Shown piece after piece: positions 7,233-36,176 of a stretch of DNA of 36,382 nt (positions are counted from its first letter, which is position 1; every line of letters begins with the position of its first letter). Both the position numbers and the translations under genes were made by a program. Location of the stretch: IMG/VR virus record IMGVR_UViG_3300037991_005016, positions 1 to 36,382 of that record. The stretch is one strand, 5' to 3'. The notes under the pieces are model-generated. The model saw only the letters and a list, made by a program, of their open reading frames with translations. It did not search any database and was not told the DNA's origin. The DNA is from a virus. Its lineage: Duplodnaviria > Caudoviricetes.

Positions 7233-9782
7233 TTAGTCTTCTTTTGGTGGTAATTTAAGACTACTAAACTTATCTTCATAAATATTCCACAATCCTTTAT
7301 CACTATCAGTATCAGCAGGTTTCTGTTCATAGCCTGTCCATGCCAACCACATTCTTTTTCCTTTAACTTCAAGCATTCTAACATGAAGTTTAGTTTCAAA
7401 TTTATTACCATCTAAGAAATATTCATGGTAGCCTTCTTTTTGAACACCTAATTTAACATCTCCACTATCAATCAGTTTACGCTTTGAAATATTCTTAGCA
7501 ACAATAGCAGGGAATTTACCTGCTTTTCCAAATAATTCAAAAATATCATCTTTAGAATCAAGTCTAATCATCCAATTAATGCTTTCATCACCTAACTTCA
7601 TTACTAAATTTAGATTATCATCTTCCCTAAGATATAATTTAAATTCTCCTGTTCTATACTTTTCCGGTGTTTTGTATTCTTTTTTTATGGTGTCTAGCAT
7701 TATTTTATCATTTTCAGCAAAGAGTTTCTTTGTTTTAGCATCAAAAGATATACCATCTCTATTCTCAAACCAATCCTTTACCCTAGTTAATTTACTATCT
7801 AATATATCTTGATAAATATCTTTATGATTCTTAACTAAAAAGTTGTGGACTTCTTTAGGAGTCTTTGCTCCTTTTTGTTTTAAGTAATTAAATATAGCAA
7901 CTGTAAGTTTAGATTGTTTTGTTTTCATTATTTCTTCCGCTTGATTTTTCCATAGGTCTAAATCTATAAGGGCATTTTTAGCCATTAGATTATCTTGCTC
8001 AAAACCATAAATAGTAAAACCATCCATGTCTCCTTTGATTATAATATTAGCCTCGCCGTGTATGTGGTCTGTAATGACTATTCCTTTTTCTACTTCTTCG
8101 ACATTATAGTTTAATGATTTATCAGTATCTTTTACTAGCATTTGTAAAGATACTAATTTGTCCGGTGTTTCGGATTCAGCAATTTCATTTATTTTTGCCG
8201 AATAAACAACAGGCTTTCCTTTAACTTCCTTTACCTTATCTATTGAAACTCTAACAATATCTCCAACATCGGCTGAAACTTGAGTATTAGTGGCATTACC
8301 AACATTAAGATAATTTTTACCTTCTATCTTTTCATCTCCTTCTTCTACCGGCCCTGCTCCTAACTTGTAAGAATAGTTAGAACCGCTTTTCTTTTTATCA
8401 AGAACAATCAAGTCTAATTCTACAAAAGGCTTCCATCTAATCCACTTTGGATTTTTCTTAGTTCCTAAGAAGTATGTTGAAGTCGCATCTTTAATCATAA
8501 CTCCTTCGGCAGTAGGCATTTCCATAATCTTCTTAGAATATTCTTCAACATCTTTTAGACTATCCGCTACTCTAGTATCTTTTTTAGATGGGAATGTTAA
8601 TGCTTCACTAGAATGAATAGAATAATTGTTAAACATTATTTGCATTCTGTTTTGTAAAGTATCTTCCATTAGGTTTTCTTCATTATGCCTCATAATATCA
8701 AAGACATGTATTCTAGGAGTTCCTTCTTTTTTACCCGCTAAATATTCTACTGCGTCTTTTCTTTTCAATGAATCTTCACCGTCAAATAAAACTAAAGAAG
8801 CATCTAGTATGCAATCTCCAAAATGTTTTTTCTTTAGTTCTTCAATCGCTTCTTTACATTTGCTAGATATATCTTTGCCTGTATAATCATAAACTTTTAT
8901 GTTTTTATCTATCTTATGGAGTTGTATTCTAAAACCATCATATTTTTCTTGAATGTAAAACTCTCCTGTAAATCCTTTGAGTTCATCCATGTCTTCTATT
9001 GTGAATATTCTATACATAGGTTTGTTGGGAATAATAAAATCGCTTTGTGCTTTTTCTTTTTCGGATTTCTTTTCTTTGAGAATAGTTTTCTTATCTTCAC
9101 CTTTATCCTCTTTGGCCTTCGCTTCATCTAATTCAGTATCTATGTCTTCTAGTTCCGCCCAATCCTGTTTAGTATTCTTAGATAAGAATATTAATTCTAG
9201 CATATTCATAGCGGCTTTTACTTTTGTTTCTACTTTCTTGGAGTCTTTACCATCACCATAATGTTCTATGATGTAAAGTGCAACATCATCAACTTCTAAA
9301 TCTAATCCTGTTAAACCGTCTGTAATATCATCGGGCTTCATATCTTTAATCGAATATGCTTCTTTTGGTAGTGCCTTATCATCTTCTCTAATAGCATAGT
9401 GAACAAACTTAATCATAAGTTCGGGTGATTCTAATAATGCTTCTAATACATTACCTTTGAATTTTTTAGCGAAAGGGTCGCTAACTTCATCGGAAGAATA
9501 TCTTAGTGCTTTGATTGCCTCATACAACTTTTCAGCATTGTTAGTGCTAACATCGGAAACATCATTTGATTCTAATAAGTCTTCATCAATATAATCCTTA
9601 AGTTCATTTGAAAGAGCATCGGTCATTTCATATGCTTCTTTGATTTTATTTACTGCGTTTCTCCATTTAGAACCGTATTCCTTTGGGTCGGTTCTTGCTG
9701 AAAGATAAGCGACTCTCGTTCTTTCAAAGAGTCTTAGAATATCTGTGGATATTGACTTATCCTTCTCAATAAGGAGAGGCAT
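7233..9782 (-). CDS. lig: ATP-dependent DNA ligase-like protein with N- and C-terminal extensions
   Basis: Motif I EKYDG-RIQLH, IIIa HVFDIM, IV EGVMIK, V KWIRWK, then OB-fold (ELDLIVL...YKLGAG); motif III is atypical (LDASL). Confidence 0.82.
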   Translation of the reverse strand: MPLLIEKDKSISTDILRLFERTRVAYLSARTDPKEYGSKWRNAVNKIKEAYEMTDALSNELKDYIDEDLLESNDVSDVSTNNAEKLYEAIKALRYSSDEVSDPFAKKFKGNVLEALLESPELMIKFVHYAIREDDKALPKEAYSIKDMKPDDITDGLTGLDLEVDDVALYIIEHYGDGKDSKKVETKVKAAMNMLELIFLSKNTKQDWAELEDIDTELDEAKAKEDKGEDKKTILKEKKSEKEKAQSDFIIPNKPMYRIFTIEDMDELKGFTGEFYIQEKYDGFRIQLHKIDKNIKVYDYTGKDISSKCKEAIEELKKKHFGDCILDASLVLFDGEDSLKRKDAVEYLAGKKEGTPRIHVFDIMRHNEENLMEDTLQNRMQIMFNNYSIHSSEALTFPSKKDTRVADSLKDVEEYSKKIMEMPTAEGVMIKDATSTYFLGTKKNPKWIRWKPFVELDLIVLDKKKSGSNYSYKLGAGPVEEGDEKIEGKNYLNVGNATNTQVSADVGDIVRVSIDKVKEVKGKPVVYSAKINEIAESETPDKLVSLQMLVKDTDKSLNYNVEEVEKGIVITDHIHGEANIIIKGDMDGFTIYGFEQDNLMAKNALIDLDLWKNQAEEIMKTKQSKLTVAIFNYLKQKGAKTPKEVHNFLVKNHKDIYQDILDSKLTRVKDWFENRDGISFDAKTKKLFAENDKIMLDTIKKEYKTPEKYRTGEFKLYLREDDNLNLVMKLGDESINWMIRLDSKDDIFELFGKAGKFPAIVAKNISKRKLIDSGDVKLGVQKEGYHEYFLDGNKFETKLHVRMLEVKGKRMWLAWTGYEQKPADTDSDKGLWNIYEDKFSSLKLPPKED

Positions 9783-17481: not shown

Positions 17482-18027
17482 CTACCACTTTACTTTATTA
17501 GCCCAATACGCTGCGCTAGTTCTACCTCTTTTGATATTTTTTCTATGACGACTCTTGAATGATTTTCTTTTTGCCTTCATTCTTTTGCTTTCACCTTTTT
17601 TTGGTTTACCTGCTACACTTGCTCCTTGTTCTCCGAAGCGAATAGTCTTGACTTTATCTCCGTCTTTAACAACTACAACATGTGATTTCTTAGGGTGTTT
17701 AGGAGTTCTCTTAGGTTTTCCAAAGCCACTAACACCGGCTCTCTTTAAAGCAGGGTGTTTCTTTCTTTTAACTATATCAAACCAATGTGCCTTCTGCATT
17801 ACTGTTCCTGTGCTTCTCATAGGAGGAAGGGCGGAAATCCCTCTTGAAGCAATTGCTCTTTTTGCTCGGTTAAGGTCTTCTTGAGTTATGGGTCTATTAT
17901 TGAATTTATAAATTGTTTTAATTTCTTGCTTAAGTCTTTTTCCGTATTGTTGTAGGGCTTGGTTATACGCAAATTTGACATTATCATCTTGAAATTTAAT
18001 ACCAAACTTTTCAATATCTTGCGTCAT
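17482..18027 (-). CDS. Two-part protein; C-terminal basic domain widespread in phages
   Basis: 181 aa; internal QKAHWFDIVK precedes KPKRTPKHPKKSHVV...IRFGEQG...SFKSRH...SAAYWANKVKW. Confidence 0.72.
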   Translation of the reverse strand: MTQDIEKFGIKFQDDNVKFAYNQALQQYGKRLKQEIKTIYKFNNRPITQEDLNRAKRAIASRGISALPPMRSTGTVMQKAHWFDIVKRKKHPALKRAGVSGFGKPKRTPKHPKKSHVVVVKDGDKVKTIRFGEQGASVAGKPKKGESKRMKAKRKSFKSRHRKNIKRGRTSAAYWANKVKW

Positions 18028-18425
18028 TGTTTACCCCTCATTTGATTTTCTTTAGATGTTTTATCATCATCAATCGGGCCACCTTTAGCCCAAGTATAGC
18101 AAGTTCTTGCTGAATGACATTTAAAATCGTGCATCCAACAGTAACCTAAACGCCCATCTTCATCAGTAGTTAATGGCATGCAATCATCCATTCTAGGTGA
18201 TATATCGAATGCAATACAATTACTACAATTAGATTTCTTTGCTACTTCGGGAGTAGTCTTCCATCTTTTAGCATACTCTTCCCAATACTTTTTATCATTA
18301 AGATTAAGTGGCCCATATCTAATATTAGGGTTTTTAACTGCGTTATCTCTATTCTTGGTATTAACCATTAGGTCTTGTGTAGCCAAAGGACACGCAAGTT
18401 GCTTAAGAATAATATGCCAAGTCAT
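18024..18425 (-). CDS. W-tagged Cys-rich metal-binding protein (HiPIP-like Cys spacing)
   Basis: Start moved to ATG 18425 (MTWHIILKQ); CSNC...GYCWMHDFKCHSARTCYTW. Confidence 0.7.
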   Translation of the reverse strand: MTWHIILKQLACPLATQDLMVNTKNRDNAVKNPNIRYGPLNLNDKKYWEEYAKRWKTTPEVAKKSNCSNCIAFDISPRMDDCMPLTTDEDGRLGYCWMHDFKCHSARTCYTWAKGGPIDDDKTSKENQMRGKQ

Positions 18426-18429
18426 AGTA

Positions 18430-18786
18430 TCATCTCGGTCTATGGGTGTAAATGTCTCCATCTTTGTGCATGAATATAACTTTCTTTCTTTTCATAGCAT
18501 TAAGAACTCTCTTTAATTCTTTAGGAGGACATATTGCTTTTAGATTTTTCATACCTAATGCTCCTCCTTCTTTTTTAATTTCAGCAAGTATTTCTTTTTC
18601 TATTTGAGCATCAGTTTTCATGGCTTTCTTTTCATCTCTAAGCATAGCAAAATCTTTTCCTGTTATTTTACCATCTTTATCCTTATCAATTCTTTTTTGG
18701 TTTCCATAAAGCATTTTTTCATCTTCTTTATGAGTTCCACAATGGGCTTTTTCTTCTTCTGTTTTTAATATATCTTTCCAATTCAT
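18430..18786 (-). CDS. W-tagged protein with an EF-hand-like loop and probable winged helix
   Basis: MNWKDILKT; DKDKDGKITGKDF is a canonical DxDxDG loop; C-terminal helix-helix-beta hairpin. Confidence 0.72.
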   Translation of the reverse strand: MNWKDILKTEEEKAHCGTHKEDEKMLYGNQKRIDKDKDGKITGKDFAMLRDEKKAMKTDAQIEKEILAEIKKEGGALGMKNLKAICPPKELKRVLNAMKRKKVIFMHKDGDIYTHRPR

Positions 18787-19133
18787 CTTGTAAATCCCCT
18801 TCCCCTACTTTTTGTTTTTTGCTTACTCGCTTGCTTTCTTTGTTTAGCGTAAGTATGTGCCGTTTTTAGCCTTTTCTTTGTTTTAGGGTCTTTAGCATTT
18901 TTAACGGCGGCTCTTAATCTTTGTTCCACTAAGTTAATTATTTGTGATTGTCTTTTATGAGATTTAGATTTAAACGCACTACTGCTAAATGTTTCTTTAA
19001 CATCTTTAACGGTTCTAAATTTTACAGGAACAGTATCTTTTGGATTTTCATCTGTATATAATCTTCTTGCTGAACCTTTAGGTTTTTTACCCGTTCCTTT
19101 TTTCGGGTCAGCCTTCAAGATATTTTGCCACAT
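18783..19133 (-). CDS. W-tagged basic protein
   Basis: Start moved to ATG 19133 (MWQNILKA); PKKGTGKKPKGSARRLYTDENPKDTV motif familiar from marine phage ORFs. Confidence 0.72.
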   Translation of the reverse strand: MWQNILKADPKKGTGKKPKGSARRLYTDENPKDTVPVKFRTVKDVKETFSSSAFKSKSHKRQSQIINLVEQRLRAAVKNAKDPKTKKRLKTAHTYAKQRKQASKQKTKSRGRGFTR

Positions 19134-19138
19134 TGTAA

Positions 19139-19423
19139 TCACTTTTGACTAAACTTCTTTCCTGTCGGCACATGTTGAACGCCTTTTTTACGGCCTTTTC
19201 TTTTCTTAGCGTCTTGATACCTTAGTGTTTTTTTATCTGTTCTTTGATAGGTCGCTCTAGGCATATATCTTCCTTTAGTTTTTGATTTAGGTTTCTTTCC
19301 TTTTGCTTTCGCTCTATGTTGTTCGGCACTTCCCCAATCTTCCTGTGTCCATTGGGTCAAATCCTGTTGCCTTTTTGACTTGGCTTTTAGGATATTCCAC
19401 CATTTAATTACGATAACCGCCAC
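19139..19423 (-). CDS. W-tagged basic protein (start uncertain)
   Basis: KWWNILKA...QQDLTQWTQEDWG...GRYMPRA; only in-frame start is GTG overlapping the upstream gene. Confidence 0.65.
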   Translation of the reverse strand: MAVIVIKWWNILKAKSKRQQDLTQWTQEDWGSAEQHRAKAKGKKPKSKTKGRYMPRATYQRTDKKTLRYQDAKKRKGRKKGVQHVPTGKKFSQK

Positions 19424-19610
19424 CTGCCCGTTTGTAGGCTTGGGCTAACATCTGTGCTTTTCTAGCCGACCATTGACCTTTAGCCCCGCCTTTATTTCCT
19501 CTTTTTATTCTATTGAAGATTTTTCTACGCATAGTAGGTTGAGTATAATTACCTGCTTGATTTACAGTAGATTTTTTCTTTTTCTTTTTCAATACTTCTT
19601 CCCATTTCAT
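19404..19610 (-). CDS. W-tagged small basic protein (DUF5872-like, from memory)
   Basis: MKWEEVLKK; NYTQPTMR...GGAKGQWSARKAQMLAQAYKRAGGGY. Confidence 0.72.
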   Translation of the reverse strand: MKWEEVLKKKKKKSTVNQAGNYTQPTMRRKIFNRIKRGNKGGAKGQWSARKAQMLAQAYKRAGGGYRN

Positions 19611-19616
19611 AATTCA

Positions 19617-19871
19617 TCACTCTCTAATATGTCTAGGTAATTCTTTTCTCATCCTATCTAATTCTTTTTCTGTTTCATTTATTATGTCTTTTTGAATATT
19701 TTTAATAAGTTCTCTTGCCTGTTCTAACGGAAAGCCTGTTTCTTTATTCATTTTGATGGCTTGTTCCTCAATATCATCATATAAGTTATCTAGTAATTTT
19801 TCTAGTCTTTCTATAAGATTTAACATTTCACCATAAGATTGTTCATCTTTTAAAATAGATTTCCACTTCAT
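19617..19871 (-). CDS. W-tagged helical protein
   Basis: 84 aa, MKWKSILKD, coiled-coil composition. Confidence 0.72.
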   Translation of the reverse strand: MKWKSILKDEQSYGEMLNLIERLEKLLDNLYDDIEEQAIKMNKETGFPLEQARELIKNIQKDIINETEKELDRMRKELPRHIRE

Positions 19872-20011
19872 TTCTTATCCCTCGCTTTTTCCCAACAACT
19901 ATCACAATACCCATAGGGGTGAACTTCTTTTGCAGTATAGCATCTTCCACAATATCTAATTTCTAATTTTCTTTTTTCAACTATCCATTCTTCTATTTCT
20001 TGTTTATTCAT
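19868..20011 (-). CDS. Small Zn-finger protein (47 aa), absent from ORF track
   Basis: Manual translation MNKQEIEEWIVEKRKLEIRYCGRCYTAKEVHPYGYCDSCWEKARDKK; two CxxC; fills the gap with ATGA overlaps at both ends. Confidence 0.7.
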   Translation of the reverse strand: MNKQEIEEWIVEKRKLEIRYCGRCYTAKEVHPYGYCDSCWEKARDKK

Positions 20012-21363
20012 ACTAGTATTCCCCCTATATTTTCCATACTATCCATTAAAGACATTTTGCAGTTATCTTTGTATTTCTGTATGTTGTCAAGATATATTCC
20101 TTCTTTTAACCAATCGAAGCCTACATGGTCTTTGTGATTCTCCCACTTCATTAACTTAAATATCTCATCACATCTTCCTTTATACCAATCCTCTTTCTTG
20201 TATGATTTCTTCATTCGTATAAGTTCCATAAGTAATTTAGCATTACCTTTCTTCAGTCTAAAGTGCGGTAGGCACTTTTCTAATAGGCCGTAAACATCAT
20301 CTTGAGAATAAAAATTTAATCTTTGAACAGGTCTAGTTTGTTGTGGAGACTTTTGATTTAGATGTAATTTGCCAAAGCCTATACTTTTGTGCATCTCTTC
20401 CATAAATGCCCTTCCTCTTTCTCCCGTAGCAATTAACCCTACTCTTGGATTGTGGTTTCTATCCATTGTAATATATCCATCGGAGTCTATGAACGCTGCC
20501 GTATAAGCCCAAATATTTTTCTTGAGCATTGTTGGTAATTTGTAATATGAACCATTAACATTAGCAACATCAAGTTTCTTTACCATTTTAGAAATCATAT
20601 TTGTTGTAGTGCTTTTGTGTAGATTGTTCGGCATTCTATCATGTATTTGTTTAGCACCGATAGAAGGACTCTTAATAATTTCACTTTCAATAAAAGACAT
20701 AATCCTTTCTTTTTTGCTTTTAGTTATAGATTGGTCGGTAATATTTTTTATTTGTTTCTTATAATCTCTTTTAGCAAGACGACATTCTTTTTCAATTTGA
20801 GCATATTCTTTTGAGTATGCCATACCATCTTTCTTTAAATCCCCTTCCCAATACTTACAGATAGAGTCAATAATATCTCTTCTACCATTAACGCTATCAA
20901 TTTTATTTATTTTTCTTAAGTCTTTTTCATTAAAACCCATTTTTAATACTGCGGGTTTATAGGGTCTTAACCAATAAATAGAATCTATGCACTTATTGAT
21001 ATGGTCGGAGTAGCCATCAATAATAGTATCAATTGCCTTAGCCATTTTAATTCTTTGCTCTCCTTTTAGTTTTCTTCTAGCCTTTCTCATCTTTTTAACT
21101 AAATCGGGAATGTTTTCTCCATCTATTGAATAATCGTTGGGAAAAGAACTTAGTTGTTTTCTAGCATCACTCGCATTAATGTTTAAATTCTTAGAAAGTA
21201 AATTTACTGCTTCGTAATCAGACATAATATAATCATCAACAGAAGCCAATTTAGTTCCTAATGCTTCCTCAATCTCGTCTTTAGTTTCATCTTGTTCTTC
21301 CTGCAATTCTGCAAGGCGATTCATTTGTTGCGAGCCTTCTCTATATTCTTCGGCAGTTGGCAT
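20008..21363 (-). CDS. Protein with C-terminal LAGLIDADG endonuclease-like domain
   Basis: 451 aa; YTAAFIDSDGYI motif, later GFGKLH and LPHFRLKKGNAKLLMEL typical of single-motif LAGLIDADG domains; AGGTGA RBS. Confidence 0.78.
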   Translation of the reverse strand: MPTAEEYREGSQQMNRLAELQEEQDETKDEIEEALGTKLASVDDYIMSDYEAVNLLSKNLNINASDARKQLSSFPNDYSIDGENIPDLVKKMRKARRKLKGEQRIKMAKAIDTIIDGYSDHINKCIDSIYWLRPYKPAVLKMGFNEKDLRKINKIDSVNGRRDIIDSICKYWEGDLKKDGMAYSKEYAQIEKECRLAKRDYKKQIKNITDQSITKSKKERIMSFIESEIIKSPSIGAKQIHDRMPNNLHKSTTTNMISKMVKKLDVANVNGSYYKLPTMLKKNIWAYTAAFIDSDGYITMDRNHNPRVGLIATGERGRAFMEEMHKSIGFGKLHLNQKSPQQTRPVQRLNFYSQDDVYGLLEKCLPHFRLKKGNAKLLMELIRMKKSYKKEDWYKGRCDEIFKLMKWENHKDHVGFDWLKEGIYLDNIQKYKDNCKMSLMDSMENIGGILV

Positions 21364-21374
21364 TTTACATCACC

Positions 21375-22805
21375 TTAAAAATTAATTCCCATGACTCCTT
21401 GAGAGCGTTTATACTTATTGACCTTTGGCGGGTCAAATATCCCCATGTCGTCTAAGAGTATGAATGTTTCACTCATTGTATGAGTGGCAGCGTTTGCTAA
21501 TGCTAAACTCATAACCATGTCGTCATGCGCTCCTATTCCCTCAAACTTTCCTTTGTCTGTTATAGCAAACATAGATAGTTCTTCTATAAGAGTAGAAGTT
21601 ACTCGACGACTTTCTTCATTAGCATAAGGTAAAATTATCTTTCCATTTTCAAAATTCATTTGTAGACTTAGGATAATCTCCTCTTTCTTTTTTCTAGTTG
21701 TATTAAAGTCATGCACATTTAAGTCTGTAACATTTCTAATCTCTTGTGTAAATGATTTAGCAAATGTATTTGTTTCAAACAATATTGCTTCGGGCTGAAA
21801 CACTTTACCAATCAACTTTACTTTCTGTATGTTTTCTCTAAACTCTACATTCTTAGAACGGTCAATAAATACGATAGTTTTGTTATCGTTTTCATCTACC
21901 TCTAATACAGTGATTACATTGTAGTCACCATCAGTAGAAATAGCAGGGTCAATACCAACATAATATTTGTAGCCCTCTCTACGCATAGGTTTCAAAACAT
22001 GGTCTTTACTCTTAGCCGCTTCTAAATATTCGGGATTAAACAAAGAAGTTCCCGTTGATATAGGAACGCACATATATTCTCTTGTAAACATTAGTGAACC
22101 TACTTCCGCCTTTCTTGCCATAAGAGCATCATAATCCCACCTGTTAGGCCATAGTGGTTCATTGAGAGCATTAAGACAAGGATATGTTCTAAGAGTATAT
22201 GCGGGGTTTTCAGCAAGTTGTTGGTATATATCTGTATAACTAAATGGAGTTCCAATAACTCTTAGAGAAGCGGTGTGGTGAAGTGTTGGTATCATGTCAC
22301 CATAAAACCAATCAGTGACTTTTTGAATACCAGTCATACTAAACTCTTTCAAAGGGTCGTCAATAATAATCTCTTGAGGGTGAAGACCTCTAATCTGTGA
22401 ACCAACAGAACGCTCCAAAATTTGATTACCGTTGGTAAGTGTAATATTTCCAATAGCCCAACCCTTAGCAGGTTTAAATTTCTTAAGCATGGGGTGATTG
22501 AATAACTTGTCAATATCTCTCATGTGAACTAATGTCTGTTTTTGGTTAGAAGAAATGTATAGCATTTGATATGGAGGCTCTCTAAAAACTAAATTCCATA
22601 CAACCCAACTGTGCATAAATACTGATTTACCGTGACCTCTTGAACAAATAATAACAGTTCTTTGGGTATCATTCATTAAATCATACCATTCCTTTTGGTG
22701 GTTAGCAAACTCCCAACCTAAAACATTTTGAAAGAAATATGGGAATGAGTTTTTAGATAACTCCATATCCATTTGATGTTCAAAATTAAAATCGTCAAGG
22801 TTCAT
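21375..22805 (-). CDS. terL: Terminase large subunit
   Basis: Q-motif HQ, Walker A SRGHGKS, Walker B IIIDD, motif III IGTP, nuclease GIDPA and HDDMVMSLALA. Confidence 0.93.
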   Translation of the reverse strand: MNLDDFNFEHQMDMELSKNSFPYFFQNVLGWEFANHQKEWYDLMNDTQRTVIICSRGHGKSVFMHSWVVWNLVFREPPYQMLYISSNQKQTLVHMRDIDKLFNHPMLKKFKPAKGWAIGNITLTNGNQILERSVGSQIRGLHPQEIIIDDPLKEFSMTGIQKVTDWFYGDMIPTLHHTASLRVIGTPFSYTDIYQQLAENPAYTLRTYPCLNALNEPLWPNRWDYDALMARKAEVGSLMFTREYMCVPISTGTSLFNPEYLEAAKSKDHVLKPMRREGYKYYVGIDPAISTDGDYNVITVLEVDENDNKTIVFIDRSKNVEFRENIQKVKLIGKVFQPEAILFETNTFAKSFTQEIRNVTDLNVHDFNTTRKKKEEIILSLQMNFENGKIILPYANEESRRVTSTLIEELSMFAITDKGKFEGIGAHDDMVMSLALANAATHTMSETFILLDDMGIFDPPKVNKYKRSQGVMGINF

Positions 22806-23113
22806 TTTGCCGCCTCTTTTATTTTAGCCAATGCCCTCTTTAGTTTCATATCTTGTGTTTTATTATCTAAAGCAGTTGCCGCTTCTTGTATGCGTTGATT
22901 ACTATAATAGAAAAAAAGAACATCTCTTTGTATTTTCTTTGGGGTCAGTTTACTATTAATTATCTTTAATATTAAATTTTTAAAAAGTTTTTCAAAGGAT
23001 TCTGCCGCTTGTTCATGTTTATCTTTTATATTAAATAAAGATAATTTTGGTGATTTATATTGAGAGGCTTCTCCATAACGCCAATCAAATTTTTTAACTT
23101 CATCAAACCACAT
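22802..23113 (-). CDS. W-tagged hypothetical protein
   Basis: 103 aa, MWFDEVKK. Confidence 0.72.
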   Translation of the reverse strand: MWFDEVKKFDWRYGEASQYKSPKLSLFNIKDKHEQAAESFEKLFKNLILKIINSKLTPKKIQRDVLFFYYSNQRIQEAATALDNKTQDMKLKRALAKIKEAAK

Positions 23114-23116
23114 TAA

Positions 23117-23761
23117 TTACCGCCTCCTTCTATTTTTTTGTCTATTTTTATTTTTTCTTCTTGTAGGGGGAGGCGAAAGCGTAAATCCTCTTGGTTTTTC
23201 TTTTGGCTTTGGTTTCTCTTTTGGTTCTTCCTTTTCTGGTTCTTTTTCAAGAATAGCCTGTCCTTTAGGGTGATTAGGTTTAATACCTTTATAAAAACAA
23301 TCTACTTTTTTTCTTCCTGTGTATTCTCTTTTTAATTGAGATAAAGTACGCGAATCAAAATAATTTGTAAAAACAATTAATTTCGTTATCAATTCTTGGT
23401 TTTGATTTCTCATATTACGATTAAATTTTTTTGTTGTTCCTGCTATTCTTCTTTCTTTTGTAGTATAAATATCTACTAAAATAACTTCATAATTATTTAC
23501 ATCTTCTTTTCTATAAAACCAATATCTTCCTTGAGCGAGGTCTTTGACGCAATCAACCCATTTTTCAATTTCATCAGTATTTCTATTAGAAGTTCCATGA
23601 TTTCCATGAACTCCTTTTAAATAATGACCCCTTACGATAACTCTAACTGTTCCATAATCATATGCCTTTGGTGGATAATCAACATGGGACATATCATGTT
23701 CGGGCATCGCATAATCAAAATAATGGCTTGGAGGCATGACCTTTAGAATATCAAACCACAT
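23117..23761 (-). CDS. W-tagged hypothetical protein with basic tail
   Basis: Start moved to ATG 23761 (MWFDILKV) after AGGTGGAG RBS. Confidence 0.72.
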   Translation of the reverse strand: MWFDILKVMPPSHYFDYAMPEHDMSHVDYPPKAYDYGTVRVIVRGHYLKGVHGNHGTSNRNTDEIEKWVDCVKDLAQGRYWFYRKEDVNNYEVILVDIYTTKERRIAGTTKKFNRNMRNQNQELITKLIVFTNYFDSRTLSQLKREYTGRKKVDCFYKGIKPNHPKGQAILEKEPEKEEPKEKPKPKEKPRGFTLSPPPTRRKNKNRQKNRRRR

Positions 23762-23770
23762 TAACTCCAC

Positions 23771-24079
23771 CTACTGATATAGTTCTCCCTTTTTTCTTTG
23801 AATAATCTTATCTAATTCTTCTTTGAGTTCCTTTCCATTTTTATATTTAGTTTCTATTATCTCAACAATTTTCCTAAATAGTTTCATAATGTCTTTATGT
23901 TCAGCACCTTTTCCTTTGTAAGCAATCATTTGAATTATATCTGTTATAGCAAACCAATTCCTTCCTGTTCCTCTATCTAATTTACCTTGCATTTCATATA
24001 TTGAATTTATAAAAACTTGAATCCACTCTTCCATTTCATTAAGAGGAGTAAAGTCATTTTTTATAATATCAAACCACAT
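23771..24079 (-). CDS. W-tagged helical protein
   Basis: 102 aa, MWFDIIKN. Confidence 0.72.
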   Translation of the reverse strand: MWFDIIKNDFTPLNEMEEWIQVFINSIYEMQGKLDRGTGRNWFAITDIIQMIAYKGKGAEHKDIMKLFRKIVEIIETKYKNGKELKEELDKIIQRKKGELYQ

Positions 24080-27524: not shown

Positions 27525-29699
27525 TTATTCCCCCTTTATCTCTAATAGTTGTTTATCGGTTAATCTGTTGAGAAGACTCTTAGGTATGGATTTAGGATTT
27601 TGTGCTTTTTCGTCTAACATCTTTTTTAATTTATCCTTAAAAGCAGTTCTTATTTTTATAAGGTTTTTCTCAACTTCACTAGCAATCTCACTTATTAGGG
27701 ATTTGTCTTTTGTTGATAAACTTTTCTTTGAAAATTGTTTTTTGCCCTCAAGTAATTCTTCTAGTTTATTTTTCAAACCTTCATCGTCTAAATATAAATG
27801 TGCTATTGAGAATAAGTAGGCAAAGCCTTCTCTAGTAGTTAATCTTCTACCAAAATAATTTGTTAAATCTCCACCAGTAGGTATCAATTCATCCTTAATG
27901 TCTTTAGTTTTCTTCTTCGATAATAGATATTCAAAGAATGCTTTTTCGGATGGTTTAGAAAAAGTAACTTCTGTTTCAATTTCACCTGCTATTATTTCTT
28001 CATTATCGGATAATTCGTCTTCATCAAAAACATCGTTTTCATCAAAAGCATATTTTAGCATAGCATTAACAAAGGAAATTATTTTCTTATTACTAGTGCG
28101 GAGTTTATCTTTATCTGCCATGCGAACAAGACCGGCATTTAATTTTTGTTCGGGAGTATCGTATTCTTCCTGTGGATATATGTTTAATTTTCCACCATCC
28201 ATAAAAGGAGCATAAAGTTTTGGGTAAGTAAGTAAATTTTCCGAATCGAATATATCTTCAATATCTTCGGTATCATATTGTTCGACTCCACTCACTTTAT
28301 CGGATTCATCTATCCTGCCTTTGTATGCAGTTGCCGTTTTTTCAGTAATTCTTTCTACCGCTACTGAAAAAGCATCACCACTACTACTACTAAATAGATT
28401 CTTTAATGTTGGGTGATAATAAAGTCTTTTATGGCCACTAGTAGCCTCATACAGTTGTAATTTTTGACTATCTTTGCTCGGTGGCCCTAATTTAAAACTA
28501 AAATAATCCTTTAAATTTGAAACTTTAGCCTTTCTTGAGCCTTCTACTAACTCAAAATACTTCTCTATTGTGTTTTCGTTTATGTCTGCTGACTCAAAGG
28601 AAAGTTCTTCTCCAACATCAAAATTTATAGTTTCAATAACTTTTTTGTCTTTTTTATCTAGTATTTCTCTAAGAAGTGGCATATCTTCAAAATATACTAT
28701 CTTTAATTTGTATTTTTTTGCTATATCATCGTCTTTGAATCTTAATTCCTCTTGAAGAACTGTTCTTTCTTCTTTGCTTGCGCTTCTTGGGGTGCGTTTA
28801 CCATCAGCAAAGTCTAGTTTCTTAGGCCATGTTCTTCTAACTTCTTTTTTTGTTGTTGTATGTGTATAAATGTACTTAGACATGCCTTTAATCCACGGTT
28901 TTTTATGTGCTTCAAGGTCAAATCCCTCAATTGGAACAAGTTTTTCATAAGTACTAAAAGATTCGTTGCTAGAAGTTAAATATTGATTATTATCGGAAGT
29001 TTTGGTAAAACCTGCAATATTTTTAGGTAATTTTACTCCAAATGTACCTATTCCTATGATTAATTTCATAATATTAAACTGCATTTTCTTGGGGTTGTCA
29101 AAATCTTTAAGAGTAGAAACTGCTTGAGGGCCTTTTTTCTTATCTTCTTTAATATCCCCTGTATTTTCTTTAAAAATAGCGATAATTTTTCTTAAATTTT
29201 TAGAACCTATGTCTTTTTTAACCCTATCTATCTTATTTTTCTTACTCATACTGTAATTATTATATTTTTTCATCAAAATTTTGTAAAATTCATCTAAATT
29301 TGGGTTTTTACTGTTGATAAATTTAGCCACTTGGCCTTCAAAATCTAATTTTGGCCTTCCCTTCTTCTGTCTTCCTATGTCAAACTCCAAAACTTTACTA
29401 AATCTCTCAAATATTTTTTCTTTAGCCTGTTTTCTTTCGTTTCTTGGCACATCTGCGACATGTTTTTCATATGCTTCGGGAAAATTACTGCTAAATAAAC
29501 CCAAAAATGAATCTAAATCGTCATAATTAATACTACCTGTGTCTAAATTAGCGAATTTTGAAAATATTTGCTCTTTTGTTTCGGGAATGAAATCTGCTTT
29601 TCTTCCTGTTGCGCTTTCTTTTGTTAGCATATTACGATATGTATCGTCTTGCATTAAGAAATCCCAAAATAAATCTACAGTGGGAGCATAAGTAGGCAT
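27525..29699 (-). CDS. Large charged hypothetical protein
   Basis: 724 aa, GGAG RBS, K/E/D-rich, no recognisable motif. Confidence 0.75.
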   Translation of the reverse strand: MPTYAPTVDLFWDFLMQDDTYRNMLTKESATGRKADFIPETKEQIFSKFANLDTGSINYDDLDSFLGLFSSNFPEAYEKHVADVPRNERKQAKEKIFERFSKVLEFDIGRQKKGRPKLDFEGQVAKFINSKNPNLDEFYKILMKKYNNYSMSKKNKIDRVKKDIGSKNLRKIIAIFKENTGDIKEDKKKGPQAVSTLKDFDNPKKMQFNIMKLIIGIGTFGVKLPKNIAGFTKTSDNNQYLTSSNESFSTYEKLVPIEGFDLEAHKKPWIKGMSKYIYTHTTTKKEVRRTWPKKLDFADGKRTPRSASKEERTVLQEELRFKDDDIAKKYKLKIVYFEDMPLLREILDKKDKKVIETINFDVGEELSFESADINENTIEKYFELVEGSRKAKVSNLKDYFSFKLGPPSKDSQKLQLYEATSGHKRLYYHPTLKNLFSSSSGDAFSVAVERITEKTATAYKGRIDESDKVSGVEQYDTEDIEDIFDSENLLTYPKLYAPFMDGGKLNIYPQEEYDTPEQKLNAGLVRMADKDKLRTSNKKIISFVNAMLKYAFDENDVFDEDELSDNEEIIAGEIETEVTFSKPSEKAFFEYLLSKKKTKDIKDELIPTGGDLTNYFGRRLTTREGFAYLFSIAHLYLDDEGLKNKLEELLEGKKQFSKKSLSTKDKSLISEIASEVEKNLIKIRTAFKDKLKKMLDEKAQNPKSIPKSLLNRLTDKQLLEIKGE

Positions 29700-29713
29700 A
29701 GCAATCTACTCCT

Positions 29714-29986
29714 TCATATTTCGCCAAGTATTCTTTTTAGTTCAAAAGCAAATTTTTCATCATCTATAGAAAACTCTTTTTGTTTATCCATCCTATAGAG
29801 TTGATTTTTAATCCACGCTCTAACAAACTCATCATCAGTCATAGGCTTACTGCCCATTCTATCATAGGTGTCTTTAGCCCCTTCAAGAAACTCCACTCCA
29901 TCACCGAATCTATCATCTATTACTTTAACCAATAGTGCATATTTTTCCGAAGGGAAATCCCTTTTTACTATATCTTTCCAACTCAT
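29714..29986 (-). CDS. W-tagged hypothetical protein
   Basis: 90 aa, MSWKDIVKR. Confidence 0.75.
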   Translation of the reverse strand: MSWKDIVKRDFPSEKYALLVKVIDDRFGDGVEFLEGAKDTYDRMGSKPMTDDEFVRAWIKNQLYRMDKQKEFSIDDEKFAFELKRILGEI

Positions 29987-30330
29987 TGTAATTTCTCCAA
30001 TTTTCTAATGTAATCTTCTACCCGTTTTATAACTCCGTCAGTATTAACACCATGAGAAACCATAAACATCTCATCTACAAGTCCTTCGTGAAAATACGGC
30101 CCACTTTTATGTCCTTTAGCATCTTCTAGCAATTCTTTAGCCATTTCCATTTCAAAATCTAAAAGTCCATCAAAATCATTATATCCCAATTCTTCAAGGT
30201 CAAGCCCCCCTTGTCTTATATCATCAACTAATTCCGCATCATCGGGGTCATTAGACAGACTATAATATTCTACCATTATTTCATAAAGTTTTTCAAGTTT
30301 ATCTTCTTTTAATATATCCTTCCAACTCAT
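29983..30330 (-). CDS. W-tagged acidic protein
   Basis: 115 aa, MSWKDILKE, strongly D/E-rich; ends EKLQ like the terS candidate. Confidence 0.75.
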   Translation of the reverse strand: MSWKDILKEDKLEKLYEIMVEYYSLSNDPDDAELVDDIRQGGLDLEELGYNDFDGLLDFEMEMAKELLEDAKGHKSGPYFHEGLVDEMFMVSHGVNTDGVIKRVEDYIRKLEKLQ

Positions 30331-30342
30331 TGTAATTTCTCC

Positions 30343-30621
30343 TTAAATTCTATTTGTTCTATCCATTTGTTGTTGTCGTTGTTCGTTTAAATTTTTTGCT
30401 TTTGTTAAATTATCCATAGAAATTTTTAATAAGTCCATCATTTTTCTATTAACATCCATTGTTGATTTTAGAGGTTGTGCGGAAGGTATTGTTCCTCCTT
30501 GTCTTACTAACCTTTCAAGATTTTCATTTTCTTTTTGTAATTGACTTGCGATATTTCTTCTTAATTGAATAGATTTTTCAAAATCAAATAATTCCTGCTT
30601 AACTATATCTTCCCAACTCAT
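30343..30621 (-). CDS. W-tagged coiled-coil protein
   Basis: Start moved to ATG 30621 (MSWEDIVKQ) inside the junction repeat. Confidence 0.72.
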   Translation of the reverse strand: MSWEDIVKQELFDFEKSIQLRRNIASQLQKENENLERLVRQGGTIPSAQPLKSTMDVNRKMMDLLKISMDNLTKAKNLNEQRQQQMDRTNRI

Positions 30622-30637
30622 TGTAATTTCTCCTGCA

Positions 30638-30874
30638 TTAACGGTCTGCTCTATATTGCGGGTCAAATAACAGTTCTTCCAATGTTCTTAAAGCCTCAAA
30701 GGGTTCATTACCCGTAAGTTCATTTTTCATTATTTCATATAATTCATTTGCGGCCATTTGAAGTCTTTTACTAACTTCATCTTGTTTCTTTTTGTATTCT
30801 TTATCATAACCAACAAAAATATCCGATAGTTTATTAGGTCTTTTTCTTTTTATAATTTCTTCTTTCCAACTCAT
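30638..30874 (-). CDS. W-tagged helical protein
   Basis: 78 aa, MSWKEEIIKR. Confidence 0.72.
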   Translation of the reverse strand: MSWKEEIIKRKRPNKLSDIFVGYDKEYKKKQDEVSKRLQMAANELYEIMKNELTGNEPFEALRTLEELLFDPQYRADR

Positions 30875-30891
30875 TGTAATTTCTCCTGCAT

Positions 30892-31536
30892 CTAAAAGTA
30901 TTTCTCCAACATAAACTTTATGTGATTTATTGCTTCTTTATTATTTGCTTGTTCTTGAGTATCGGCCAATAGTTGTTTTGTTTTAGAATCATTATTCTCT
31001 AATTTTTCTATTATATCTAATGCTAAAGCCTTAACTCTATTACTAGGAACTTCTTTGAAATCTAATTTATCGTGGTCTTTTGTTCGGTAAATAGCAGAAG
31101 CAGGTAATCCTTCTTTTTTGGGTTTTCTTCTAATATCTAATCCCATTATTCCGCTATCATAATCTAAATTCACCATTTCTTTTTTTGGTAATAGTTGAAT
31201 TAATCTTGGCTTTCCTTTATCCTTAAATCGCAACTCATGGTCGGATTCATGCCACCCTAAAAAAGCATAAATGGTTGATTGATGGATATTAGGAGAAAAA
31301 TACTTGCTAACATATTCTTCTAATTCTTCATCATATTCTTGCTCTATGTTTTTTATTTCATCACCTTGAAATCCATGATATAATTTAGAGTAAGTTATAT
31401 TAGGAAATGGCCTACTATGTGGTATATTTTTTCTATTTAATTCTTCAATCAATTCTTTACCTTTAGGGCTTCTATCATATTCATATTGTTCCCCGCCTAC
31501 TCTATATGGGGATTTAAGAATAGATTGCCAACTCAT
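30892..31536 (-). CDS. W-tagged putative ADP-ribosyltransferase-fold protein
   Basis: 214 aa, MSWQSILKS; LYHG followed by YFSPNIHQSTIYA fits the H-G / YF[S/T]xxxxxAxxYA pattern of ART-like domains. Confidence 0.55.
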   Translation of the reverse strand: MSWQSILKSPYRVGGEQYEYDRSPKGKELIEELNRKNIPHSRPFPNITYSKLYHGFQGDEIKNIEQEYDEELEEYVSKYFSPNIHQSTIYAFLGWHESDHELRFKDKGKPRLIQLLPKKEMVNLDYDSGIMGLDIRRKPKKEGLPASAIYRTKDHDKLDFKEVPSNRVKALALDIIEKLENNDSKTKQLLADTQEQANNKEAINHIKFMLEKYF

Positions 31537-32189
31537 TGTAACTTCTCCTGCATTCTTTTCTTAATGTCTAGCCAAATTTGAGGATTGTTTTCAGCAAGCA
31601 CTTCTTGGACAACTTGCATCTGTGCAAATATAACTGTGTCCTGTCTCTTATGTATAAGTTTGCCCTTAAACTCCATGAGATATTTTAATGACTCTCTAAC
31701 TTCTTTCGCAAGTTTAGTTAGACTATCTATCTCTCTAGGCTCTAAATCAATATCATTAAACAAATCATTCAACTTACTATCGAGCCTTTGTATGTTAGCA
31801 CTTAGTAAATCAATCTCATTAACTTCTTTCTTTGCTATAATAACGGCTGCGGATTCTTGAACAAGTGGTGCTAAGTGATGTTTCATATGTCTTTGAATTT
31901 GCTCTTTTGTTGTTCCTAGTGCTTCGGCAATAGCCTCACTTGTAATGTCACCATTCGACAAACTTTCTTCATAGTGTTTTCTCATTGGGTCGGTGCATAA
32001 TACACACTTAGGATTACTACTATTTACATAATCTCCCATGTGGTTTCTCTGATGTTGCGCTGCCGTTCCACTTCTCCAATTATGGGTTCTATCTAAATCA
32101 TCACAACTTACTGAACCTTGTTCAAGAGCCTCTTCTAATTCCTCTCTATCTTCATGTTGGCAAAAACCACAACGCTTTCTTGTTACCAC
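31533..32189 (-). CDS. Putative terminase small subunit (tandem Zn-binding HTH repeats)
   Basis: 218 aa, GTG start; two repeats CxxC...HxxxH (CGFC...HQRNH; CVLC...HMKHH), HTH-like SEAIAEALGTTKEQIQRH, helical C-terminus; upstream of terL. Confidence 0.55.
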   Translation of the reverse strand: MVTRKRCGFCQHEDREELEEALEQGSVSCDDLDRTHNWRSGTAAQHQRNHMGDYVNSSNPKCVLCTDPMRKHYEESLSNGDITSEAIAEALGTTKEQIQRHMKHHLAPLVQESAAVIIAKKEVNEIDLLSANIQRLDSKLNDLFNDIDLEPREIDSLTKLAKEVRESLKYLMEFKGKLIHKRQDTVIFAQMQVVQEVLAENNPQIWLDIKKRMQEKLQ

Positions 32190-33989: not shown

Positions 33990-34217
33990 TCAAGCCCTCG
34001 CTAAACTTCCAAGTATTCTCTTAATGCTATCCATAGTAGTCTTATGCGCTCTATGATATTCTCCGGCTAAGTTTTTAAACTCTTCACCATCAATCATTTC
34101 TTCACCATGAAACTTTCTAACTATTTCATCTAATTCTTTTAAAATATCTCTTTGCTTGCCAAAGTTATCAATGGCATTTTGCGTAGTTTGACGCTTTAGA
34201 ATAGTTTGCCATGTCAC
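33990..34217 (-). CDS. W-tagged helical protein
   Basis: 75 aa, GTG start after GGAG, MTWQTILKR. Confidence 0.72.
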   Translation of the reverse strand: MTWQTILKRQTTQNAIDNFGKQRDILKELDEIVRKFHGEEMIDGEEFKNLAGEYHRAHKTTMDSIKRILGSLARA

Positions 34218-34228
34218 AATTAACTCTC

Positions 34229-34531
34229 CTAATCAAGTTTGTTTTCTCTTTTTACTGTTTCTTCTATAATCTCTTCCAAAGTTTCTAGTTCGTCTATCAC
34301 TCTAATGAAATTTTTCATGAAACCTATTATATGTTTGCGTTCATATTCTAGCCTCTTTTGAAAATTTTGTTCTTTGGGAGAAGGATTTTTTACTTTATCC
34401 CAAAACTCAATAGTTTCTCTAACCCTCCTTAACCTATAATCTAAAAACTTACGCAGTTCTTTAGCACTTGAAAATAATTCATCTATTTCTTTTTCCGATT
34501 TAAAATCTTTTAATATATCTCCCCAACTCAT
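34229..34531 (-). CDS. W-tagged coiled-coil protein
   Basis: 100 aa, MSWGDILKD, AGGTGA RBS. Confidence 0.75.
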   Translation of the reverse strand: MSWGDILKDFKSEKEIDELFSSAKELRKFLDYRLRRVRETIEFWDKVKNPSPKEQNFQKRLEYERKHIIGFMKNFIRVIDELETLEEIIEETVKRENKLD

Positions 34532-34635
34532 TTCTTATCACCTGTTATCAAATCTTTCTTTTGTTTGCTTTCTGCCTCATCTAATTCCTTTGATTTTGCA
34601 TCAAACCAACTATCTAAGTAATTACACCTTGTCAT
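34528..34635 (-). CDS. Small 35-aa protein, absent from ORF track
   Basis: Manual translation MTRCNYLDSWFDAKSKELDEAESKQKKDLITGDKK; AGGTGA RBS; stop overlaps next ATG (ATGA). Confidence 0.65.
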   Translation of the reverse strand: MTRCNYLDSWFDAKSKELDEAESKQKKDLITGDKK

Positions 34636-34636
34636 A

Positions 34637-34939
34637 TTATTCACCTTCAACAATTCTTTTTACATTGTTTAACATTGTATTCTTTACTATTTCATACAGT
34701 CTTTTATCTTTAATAAAAAATGGAGTAATAATTATTGTGTATTTTTTTCCTAGCCATTCCGATGAGTAATATAAATTTGCCTCTCTAAGTAATTTAATAA
34801 TTTTTATCATATCATCACTTCTCGCAAATTCATCATCAATATACGCAGTATAAACTCGCTTATTGTTAGGGTCGCCAGTGCGCTCGCCTTCTTCTATCTT
34901 AAACTCAATTTTTTGTTTAAGAATATCTTCCCATGTCAT
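34637..34939 (-). CDS. W-tagged hypothetical protein
   Basis: Start moved to ATG 34939 (MTWEDILKQ); the GTG in the ORF track is part of the AGGTGA RBS. Confidence 0.72.
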   Translation of the reverse strand: MTWEDILKQKIEFKIEEGERTGDPNNKRVYTAYIDDEFARSDDMIKIIKLLREANLYYSSEWLGKKYTIIITPFFIKDKRLYEIVKNTMLNNVKRIVEGE

Positions 34940-34948
34940 ATTATTCAC

Positions 34949-35191
34949 CTATTCATATAATTCATATAATGCTTCTATATCAGTAAACTTCTCTAATAGG
35001 TTAATAGCGGCTTTTGCTAAAGGTCTAGCATCTACATATTCCGTATGTTTCCCATGTCTATTTACAACCATTTTTCCTTCTTTCTCCTCGCTCATAATAT
35101 AAATTATACCATCAACATAATGTTTAACTTTATTTAGAACAGTGATGGGTTTTTCAGGTATGTTCTTTTTAATCTCATCTTTCCATGTCAT
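34949..35191 (-). CDS. W-tagged hypothetical protein
   Basis: Start moved to ATG 35191 (MTWKDEIKK). Confidence 0.72.
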   Translation of the reverse strand: MTWKDEIKKNIPEKPITVLNKVKHYVDGIIYIMSEEKEGKMVVNRHGKHTEYVDARPLAKAAINLLEKFTDIEALYELYE

Positions 35192-35200
35192 ATTATTCAC

Positions 35201-35587
35201 CTAAATTTTAAAATCCTTTTCTCCAAATATTTTACTAATCATCTTACTCAAAGTAATACGGCTAGCACCCGCAGTAGCCCATTCTTCTCCATCTCTTGAG
35301 GCTTGGAGTAAAGTATATCTCAAAATATATTCTCTTTCATCCATACCTTTCAAATATTTGTCTTCTGTTCCATCCTCTTTCATTTCATGTAAATTTGCTT
35401 GAGCATCTTCATAATATTTCATAGCCTTACCATCGGTCATTCTATACAATATCTTTAAAAATATCTCCAATAATTCATCTTGGTCGTATTCATTAATTAA
35501 GAAATAAAGAGAAGACCGGCCTCTCCTGTCAAAAGGCCCTCTAATTCCTCTTTTAGTTTTTTTAGCAATTATATCTTCCCATGTCAT
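35201..35587 (-). CDS. W-tagged hypothetical protein
   Basis: Start moved to ATG 35587 (MTWEDIIAKK). Confidence 0.72.
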   Translation of the reverse strand: MTWEDIIAKKTKRGIRGPFDRRGRSSLYFLINEYDQDELLEIFLKILYRMTDGKAMKYYEDAQANLHEMKEDGTEDKYLKGMDEREYILRYTLLQASRDGEEWATAGASRITLSKMISKIFGEKDFKI

Positions 35588-35612
35588 ATTATTCACCTTT
35601 TATTTTAAACGA

Positions 35613-35930
35613 CTTTTTCAAAAATTTTTCTAGGAATTTTTTTCTTTCTTTCTTTTAGCCTCTTGTTCTAAATCATATGCCCCACTTGACATATAGGCTT
35701 CTCTCATACCATCGGGTGTATTTGCTCTATCTCTTGCTATCCTTTCATCCATAGCCTTAAATCGAGCCTTATCGTCTTTAGCCCTTTCCTCATATTCTCT
35801 TTTTTCTCGGTCAAATACAAGTTTTTGATACTCCTTTTCTTGTTCGGGAGTCATATACTTTACTTTGTCTTTTTTAACAATATCTTTCCAATTCATTTAA
35901 TCATCTCCTTTTTCAAAAATTTTTCTAGGA
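35613..35930. repeat. 23-bp direct repeat CTTTTTCAAAAATTTTTCTAGGA flanking one gene
   Basis: Identical copies at 35613-35635 and 35908-35930; partial copy TTTTTCAAAAA near 36191-36201. Confidence 0.85.
35630..35896 (-). CDS. W-tagged charged protein
   Basis: 88 aa, MNWKDIVKK, GGAGATGA RBS. Confidence 0.72.
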   Translation of the reverse strand: MNWKDIVKKDKVKYMTPEQEKEYQKLVFDREKREYEERAKDDKARFKAMDERIARDRANTPDGMREAYMSSGAYDLEQEAKRKKEKNS

Positions 35931-36176
35931 TTTGTCATAGCCTTGCCTCGCCTCTTTTATGAAGGCTAATCCATTTTCCATATTCCTAGAAACAGACTTC
36001 TTTATGTAGTCTATTTCCTTAAGAAGAGTATCTTTATCTGCTTCTTGTTTAATCTCATCTTCAAGCCTCATCACTTGTGTGGATAATCTACCCATGTCAA
36101 ATTTAAAGAACTCTAATATTTTGAAATACCTTTGGTCGGATATTTTTTCTTTTTTAATCGTATTTTCCCAATTCAT
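35925..36176 (-). CDS. W-tagged helical protein
   Basis: 83 aa, MNWENTIKK. Confidence 0.72.
   Translation of the reverse strand: MNWENTIKKEKISDQRYFKILEFFKFDMGRLSTQVMRLEDEIKQEADKDTLLKEIDYIKKSVSRNMENGLAFIKEARQGYDKS

Follow-up and report, generated by a model that had tools for sequence, protein, structure and literature searches.

A Hypervariable Array of Tagged Genes Joined by Copies of a Core-Gene End in a Magrovirus-Like Virus

How does a virus come to carry a row of unrelated genes that are entered, one after the other, through the same short piece of DNA? The question is raised by IMG/VR virus record IMGVR_UViG_3300037991_005016, which is considered here in its whole length of 36,382 nucleotides (the window). 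On its minus strand, five consecutive unrelated small genes—the cassettes, each starting with the same short peptide tag—lie behind a gene for a candidate terminase small subunit (TerS; the anchor gene) and are joined by a repeat whose first copy forms the end of the anchor gene's coding sequence. The locus is probably a hypervariable array of tagged genes in which whole units are exchanged at the repeat and turnover is concentrated at the terS-proximal end. Its likely driving force is general short-homology recombination, probably by way of single-gene circles and with no dedicated integrase.

The Repeat and the Five-Gene Array

The 21-mer GGAGAARTTACAATGAGTTGG occurs in five exact copies on the minus strand, at 29978, 30322, 30613, 30866, and 31528. 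In 100 shuffles of the window it was matched 0.02 times on average and never five times, and the joining of five consecutive unrelated tagged genes by five copies, which a previous sequence-only reading of this DNA had reported, is thus real. Only copies 1 to 3 (31528–31553, 30866–30891, and 30613–30638) extend to the full 26-mer, copy 4 being 22 bp and copy 5 being 21 bp long. Copy 1 carries a G where the other four carry an A; it is the coding end of open reading frame (ORF) 31533–32189 (MQEKLQ-stop) and overlaps the first cassette through ATGA. Copies 2 to 4 are intergenic up to the ATG, and copy 5 causes ORF 29983–30330 to terminate in EKLQ—all as described in that reading. The repeat had been placed before each gene, which holds, but it also enters the genes, the final nine bases of every copy being the first three codons (M-S-W) of the next one. 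The third gene begins at 30621 and not at the TTG at 30666. An assembly chimera is ruled out by a single contig that covers 29500–31612 and comes from run X3, which may be the source sample, and by the bridging of each of the five junctions by contigs of runs X7, X8, and X9, which are not marked as possible sources. The features of the locus are the following.

31533..32189, minus strand: anchor gene, 218 aa, terminase-small-subunit candidate; its last codons contain the ribosome-binding site (RBS) and spacer of cassette 1; conserved in 160 loci
31528..31553, minus strand: junction 1, made up of the anchor gene's coding end and the ATG-AGT-TGG of cassette 1; G variant; putative entry site
30892..31536, minus strand: cassette 1, 214 aa, tag MSWQSILK
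30866..30891, minus strand: junction 2, 26 bp, immediately past the TAG of cassette 1; left half in common with locus L111
30638..30874, minus strand: cassette 2, 78 aa, tagged; homolog, among the loci fetched, only in the identical locus L096
30613..30639, minus strand: junction 3, 27 bp with one mismatch; its left edge is a TAATG stop/start overlap
30343..30621, minus strand: cassette 3, 92 aa, tagged; homolog, among the loci fetched, only in L096
30322..30343, minus strand: junction 4, 22 bp, starting at an AGGAG that overlaps the TAA of cassette 3
29983..30330, minus strand: cassette 4, 115 aa, tagged; runs through junction 5 and has the EKLQ end of the anchor gene
29978..29998, minus strand: junction 5, 21 bp
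29714..29986, minus strand: cassette 5, 90 aa, tagged; its homologs occupy the first position in L099 and L112 and the third in L167
29700..29713, minus strand: native (non-terS) trailer of cassette 5, AGGAG followed by a spacer unlike that of terS
27525..29699, minus strand: distal closing gene, 724 aa, no family match

Array Content and Breakpoints in Related Loci

With the anchor protein as query, 80 loci were obtained from viruses and 80 from metagenomes. Sufficient downstream sequence was available in 151 loci, the window included, and 135 were left once exact duplicates had been removed; 106 arrays were counted as closed, that is, bounded by a gene of more than 450 aa. The gene calls made for this comparison missed a few very short first ORFs, for example in L106, L108, L110, and L074. 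The arrays contain between zero and seven small genes, and 97 of the 106 closed ones are distinct. The 356 small genes fall into 190 families; M-x-W starts 319 of these genes, and 288 have a K at position 8. A Pfam scan of 150 cassette representatives gave two matches at 1e-4, one of them over the cut-off.

Nearest relatives, with anchors 95–98% identical, carry different arrays. For 39 close pairs whose arrays differ, identity was scanned from −20: It ends no later than ATG+30 of the first gene that differs in every pair and resumes within −25 to +30 of a start codon in 34. A cruder block analysis places 343 of 397 block ends in the start-codon zone against an expected 20%, although these ends are not independent and the anchor end dominates them. 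The sequence-only reading had named identical gene content across divergent relatives, or breakpoints unrelated to the repeat, as outcomes that would speak against it; both were looked for and neither occurred. Its picture of an array that expands and contracts, with genes gained, lost, and swapped at the repeat, is borne out by the range of zero to seven genes and by the number of distinct arrays.

Two further observations concern losses. Directly after the anchor stop, the first cassette of L106, L108, and L110 is a 12-codon ORF consisting of the tag only (MSWKDILKITLG)—apparently a deletion remnant. The first cassette present in L067 is missing from L076, where the anchor end looks like a hybrid with the second junction and the last residues are altered; the difference between the two loci reads as a deletion through RBS micro-homology.

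Origin of the Repeat

As judged by where the motif occurs, the repeat was copied from the end of the anchor gene of the lineage in which it resides and is not a product of convergence, because it is all but confined to the array and tracks the gene end of each lineage. The motif was counted 113 times in 124,701 nt of array; the upstream flanks (705,136 nt) have none and the downstream flanks (602,926 nt) have one, and in the window and the genomes of three relatives it is confined to this locus. The resident variant is found in 73 of 112 terS-like junctions compared with 41.7 ± 5.8 in shuffles, a difference that related loci inflate. Seven loci have an anchor end of the GATGCA/GATGGC type, and 6 of their 18 junctions are of the same type and none of the TTACA type; in 123 loci of the TACA type, 1 of 313 junctions is of the GATGCA/GATGGC type and 142 are of the TTACA type. 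The proposal that the repeat copies the 3' end of the upstream gene is hence upheld by the concentration of the motif in the array and by its lineage-specific variants.

That the repeat is merely a convergent translation signal joined to a conserved protein tag is scarcely credible. It is made up of RBS, spacer, ATG, and tag codons, with GGAG and TGG under constraint, as such a signal would be; however, the motif is missing before other tagged and untagged genes (none in the 705 kb upstream), takes in bases upstream of the RBS, and follows lineage variants. As a sole cause, convergence is refuted by the distribution of the motif between array and flanks.

The Mobile Unit and Its Trailer

Pairs that share an upstream gene but not the next one have the same gap in 45 of 79 cases, whereas pairs that share a downstream gene but not the previous one have the same gap in 10 of 68 (pairs overlap in both counts). 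RBS and spacer therefore travel as the 3' trailer of the upstream gene. The moving unit that emerges from this comparison consists of the start codon with the tag, the ORF, its stop, and a 3' trailer that holds RBS and spacer for the next gene.

Cassette 1 of the window has 96% nucleotide identity to the first gene of L111 and is followed by the same left half of junction 2, with different neighbors in the two loci; the terS allele of L111 differs from that of the window, the anchor being only 76–87% alike in its 5' part. Around this shared cassette, the A/G variant is swapped (G, A at junctions 1 and 2 of the window; A, G in L111). Such a swap could be expected if one circle had integrated to the left or to the right of the variant; a point mutation could also account for it.

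In three first-position pairs with cassettes 96–97% identical, the terS 3' ends are no more alike than background, and 12 pairs that share a first cassette show no excess of anchor 3' identity. A long left homology arm—mosaicism within the last 45 codons of the anchor—was rejected as the usual route, with 1 of 1660 pairs significant versus 3, 16, and 2 in three control windows. By the background likeness of the 3' ends in the three pairs and the null mosaicism test, the cassettes transfer without flanking terS.

The exact match of junctions to the anchor end peaks at lengths of 7, 13, and 18–19 nt. In 56 of 99 distinct terS-like junctions, the stop of the preceding gene touches or overlaps the left edge of the match; it lies further left in 24, and 19 are read through in frame to the shared TGA. 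The match edges are the RBS AGGAG and the ATG of the anchor's last Met, and both resemble common native gene ends: Three relatives have 258 called genes of at least 90 aa (array genes included), 44 of which end in stop+AGG, 27 in TRATG, and 18 in a stop followed by ATG. Cassette 5 is followed by TGA-AGGAG and then by its native spacer in the window, and by the anchor's spacer in its L099 homolog. We infer that the micro-homologies of 4–6 nt at the trailer starts (AGGAG and stop/ATG overlaps) are the crossover points. A six-codon relay ORF (MQEKLQ) was tried as the explanation of why some junctions measure 16–17 nt; its ATG is intact in only 26 of 38 distinct cases, and it is hence not required. 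In-frame polyprotein fusions at an array junction were found zero times with the patterns used.

Polarity of Turnover

When 21 disjoint close pairs are compared, 12 have just the last small gene in common, and for none is this true of the first (p = 0.0005). From the first internal junction to the last, terS-likeness falls in 26 arrays, rises in 5, and is equal in 6, and 37 of 82 multi-member families are seen both first and later in the row. Comparison of an empty (L034) with a filled site (L038) features a junction duplication of 18+ nt. Turnover is likely concentrated at the terS-proximal end, with entry biased to junction 1; relatives differ almost wholly within this row and mainly at its front, which makes it likely that new genes enter there and push older ones back. 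Of the serial addition by short-repeat recombination that had been proposed from the sequence, the gain, loss, and swap at the repeat stand; the polarity had no part in it.

Catalyst and Intermediates

Tyrosine (PF00589) and serine (PF00239) recombinases were found in none of four relatives, three of them at least 90% complete, which carries the earlier statement that no integrase is visible in the window over to near-complete genomes. In the complete 96-kb relative G002, the family scan covered 83 of 116 called proteins; no tyrosine recombinase is among them, many are without family match, and a host enzyme could still act. The complement of G002 comprises PolB, two ATP-dependent ligases, ERCC4 and PD-(D/E)XK nucleases, UvrD, an AAA_24 ATPase, and a TCP-1 chaperonin. 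The AAA_24 ATPase is present in all four relatives and over the cut-off in two; this family includes Sak4-type annealing recombinases.

No hairpin or inverted repeat was found to recur at the junctions. A promoter and terminator scan gave 13 sigma70-like matches versus 12.3 by chance and zero terminators, the consensus used not covering archaeal promoters. Two joints, 30342>31528 and 30639>30605, were considered as deletions or circles and rejected: Their sides are short and derive from other viruses that share the repeat.

Proposed Mechanism

In the explanation favored here, a gene would acquire a terS-like trailer by a crossover at 4–6 nt of micro-homology between its native end (stop+AGGAG, TAATG/TGATG, or stop+ATG) and the end of the anchor gene. 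The trailer-bearing gene would then share 12–19 nt, plus ~24 nt of tag-coding homology, with junction 1 of any relative, and entry at junction 1 would leave the anchor gene intact and displace older genes backward. Junction 1 would be favored as the sole full-length copy under selection, with the distal copies decaying. Likely catalysts would be the virus's own predicted AAA_24 ATPase, nucleases, and ligases. By analogy to the capsid targeting sequence of T-even phages, the shared N-terminal tag would likely direct the products to the virion, and the array would then be a changing set of injected host-interaction proteins.

Several observations weigh against this account. About half of the junctions in relatives are not terS-like; each event had been proposed to duplicate the junction, which fits L034 and L038 but not the general case, the trailer usually traveling with the upstream gene. 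Families that are also seen first lie behind a terS-like junction in 39 of 80 cases versus 36 of 90 for families that are never first, and singleton families are first 15 times and last 10 times in 51 arrays—both slight excesses. Internal insertions and deletions exist, for example between L014 and L015, and the polarity is therefore a bias and not a rule. As for intermediates, no circle or repeat-to-repeat deletion joint of the array was found in the contigs of 8 of 24 listed runs, where rare forms are dropped. The first two junctions of 29 informative loci carry the lineage variant at both positions in 23, one foreign variant in 5, and two different foreign variants in 1, and these counts do not separate a circle from two short crossovers.

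The Anchor Gene and Alternative Explanations

The predicted model of the anchor protein (pLDDT 65.5) features two small helical repeats with conserved Cys/His, which are helix-turn-helix (HTH)-like, a long hairpin, and C-terminal helices. The layout of TerS, according to excerpts of PMC9611059, is an N-terminal HTH followed by a central helical-hairpin oligomerization core. The anchor hairpin aligns to TerS of phage 44RR with a Z-score of 7.9 and a root-mean-square deviation of 2.6 over 72 residues, a score tied with those of many unrelated hairpins. Foldseek with the anchor model gave nothing at E ≤ 0.001, and no TerS match was found in PHROGs, Pfam, phage records, homolog names, or Atlas. 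The predicted four-copy complex of residues 100–218 scored 0.31, with the mark at 0.42. The predicted layout is like that of TerS, and the gene, called terS from the sequence, stays a TerS candidate. Near-complete contigs of L022, L023, L025, L039, and L073 begin or end within ~2.5 kb of the anchor gene; these ends could be genome ends or assembly breaks at arrays.

If the anchor is TerS and its 3' end is a pac site, binding, synapsis, or cutting by terminase could make junction 1 a recombination hot spot that drives one-way capture. T4 phage provides a precedent, its gene 16 having a preferred pac site at its 3' end with gp16-dependent gene amplification around it (excerpts of PMC3012670). 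This explanation is unlikely, but it would suit the strong polarity without co-transfer of the terS flank, the TerS-like architecture, including the 44RR alignment, and conservation of the gene end at the DNA level: The penultimate codon of the anchor is the Leu codon TTA in 121 of 126 cases, and two Leu codons close by are TTA in 55 and 52 of 135. Against it stand the tied Z-score and the lack of Foldseek and TerS family matches, the 8.7 kb that separate the gene from terL, the large terminase gene, and similar tagged arrays with other repeats away from the anchor (33990–36176); selection on RBS and spacer can, in addition, account for the conservation. A shade less likely again is the bolder proposition that the virus uses its DNA-packaging machinery, with terminase binding or cutting at a pac signal in the anchor 3' end, as an integrase substitute and builds a time-ordered, newest-first array of virion-loaded anti-host proteins.

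Two further mechanisms would dispense with a terminase. Insertion might take place at any junction, with selection retaining new genes in front, where coupling to the anchor gives the strongest expression, and fixing older useful genes beside the large gene; almost every locus has an ATGA stop/start overlap at junction 1, internal insertions and deletions occur, and some distal genes are common to many relatives. Alone, however, such selection leaves unexplained both the gradient of terS-likeness along the array and the genes that lead the array of one virus and follow a terS-like junction in that of a close relative, and it is improbable as the whole explanation. More improbable still is a true integron-like system, in which an unrecognized or host-encoded site-specific recombinase inserts cassettes of ORF plus trailer at junction 1. 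The anatomy of an ORF with a 3' site and the first-position entry resemble integrons, and the many G002 proteins without family match could harbor such an enzyme; yet PF00589 and PF00239 were found in none of the four relatives, three of them at least 90% complete, no inverted repeat or hairpin is tied to the junctions, the crossover points vary (7, 13, or 18–19 nt, or inside the tag), and the site drifts with the lineage.

Virus, Source, and Other Tagged Genes

The window is a single 36-kb virus record in which genes for the major capsid protein, protease, portal, and large terminase were found. Among annotated phages, the major capsid protein is best matched by haloviruses HCTV-1 and HVTV-1. 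A genome of ~90–110 kb with its own replication module and no integrase is found in the relative G002 and is not shown for the 36-kb window. The window virus is magrovirus-like, its gene set being consistent with that of the Magrovirales in PMC10768690, PMC12999244, and the available part of PMC5434244: These share HK97-type head genes closest to HCTV-1 and HVTV-1, relatives of 90–100 kb, PolB, ligases, a chaperonin, and the lack of an integrase. In contrast, array, repeat, and tag go unmentioned in the magrovirus text and profiles examined from PMC10768690 and PMC12999244 and in the available part of PMC5434244. The host would accordingly be among the archaea, as with the Poseidoniales for Magrovirales, and the runs that hold array sequence are of marine origin. 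No magrovirus is in culture (PMC10768690).

Tagged genes occur elsewhere in the window as well, all on the minus strand. Upstream of the anchor, at 33990–36176, seven small tagged genes form a second array, which has its own GGTGAATAATATGACATGG-type repeat, with three copies at 34925–35629. Of the 190 families of the downstream array, 16 are also found upstream of the anchor in other loci, and genes therefore move between arrays. A 35-aa Cys gene (MTRC..., 34528–34635) is part of the upstream array here and of the downstream array in L016, L017, L019, L021, and L080. More tagged genes lie beside terL and portal (22802–24079 and 18024–19871), among them a shorter M-W-F-D variant of the tag that has a repeat family of its own. 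Two larger genes on the same strand stand out: The 849-aa protein at 7233–9782 features an ATP-dependent DNA ligase domain within the head module, adjoins the prohead protease, and is also present in G002, and the 451-aa gene after terL (20008–21363) has an HNH-like match to PHROG 5046 (E 5e-6).

Comparison with Known Systems

Integrons consist of attI, attC, and IntI; their cassettes are promoterless ORFs with a 3' recombination site, which enter at the first position and push older cassettes back. The array shares with them the cassette of ORF plus 3' site, in that the trailer stays with the upstream gene, and the first-position entry that the polar turnover suggests. It differs by having no IntI, no hairpin attC, and no fixed crossover bond, exchange being based on homology. 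The integron-like accordion that the sequence-only reading had seen is hence correct in that the array expands and contracts with no integrase, but it is not an integron.

PeSL shuffling in T4-type phages, PeSL elements being repeats with an early promoter and a stem-loop (Arbiol et al. 2010, excerpts of PMC2839356 and PMC4122927), is similar in that recombination between repeated intergenic elements, each closed by a Shine-Dalgarno sequence and a start codon, adds, removes, and exchanges small ORFans, with chimeric junctions, no integrase, and indel breakpoints in the element. Mini-circles have been demonstrated for it in T4-type phages (excerpts of PMC2839356). Unlike a PeSL, the present repeat of 21–26 bp has neither promoter nor stem-loop, has its source in the 3' coding sequence of a core gene, and extends into a shared protein tag, and the turnover is polar.

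At the T-even IPI locus, whose proteins carry the capsid targeting sequence, diverse small proteins with only a short N-terminal peptide in common are exchanged at one site (excerpts of PMC4122927, PMC3012670, and PMC9026906). The likeness to this locus that had been pointed out is a fair one, since unrelated proteins share an N-terminal tag here too. Packaging and cleavage are demonstrated in T4 and would be putative for the present array; its tag has another sequence, M-S-W-x-D-I-L-K, and its noncoding trailer is copied from the upstream core gene. The gp16-dependent amplification of T4 gene 17, with the pac site in gene 16 (excerpts of PMC3012670), likewise focuses recombination at the 3' end of a small-terminase gene, which for the anchor is a candidate assignment; T4 amplifies resident genes, while the present array captures foreign ones.

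A lytic virus without an integrase could, on this account, run an integron-like ordered capture array with no more than an RBS, a start codon, and a peptide tag common to its genes. The place of a gene in the row would record its age, and the arrays of hundreds of ocean magroviruses would be a readable history of recent gene gains. The ~190 uncharacterized families are candidate injected anti-defense factors against a highly abundant uncultured archaeal group. No prior description of the array was found in a literature search that included term look-ups in the accessible portions of PMC11706807, PMC5434244, PMC10160649, and PMC5332604, supplements and Zhou et al. 2023 (Environ Microbiol) lying outside its scope. 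The array belongs to none of the integrons, PeSL elements, and T-even internal proteins, and what sets it apart as new is its polar turnover, a mobile unit of ORF plus 3' trailer, trailer starts at micro-homologies, and transfer without flanking terS.

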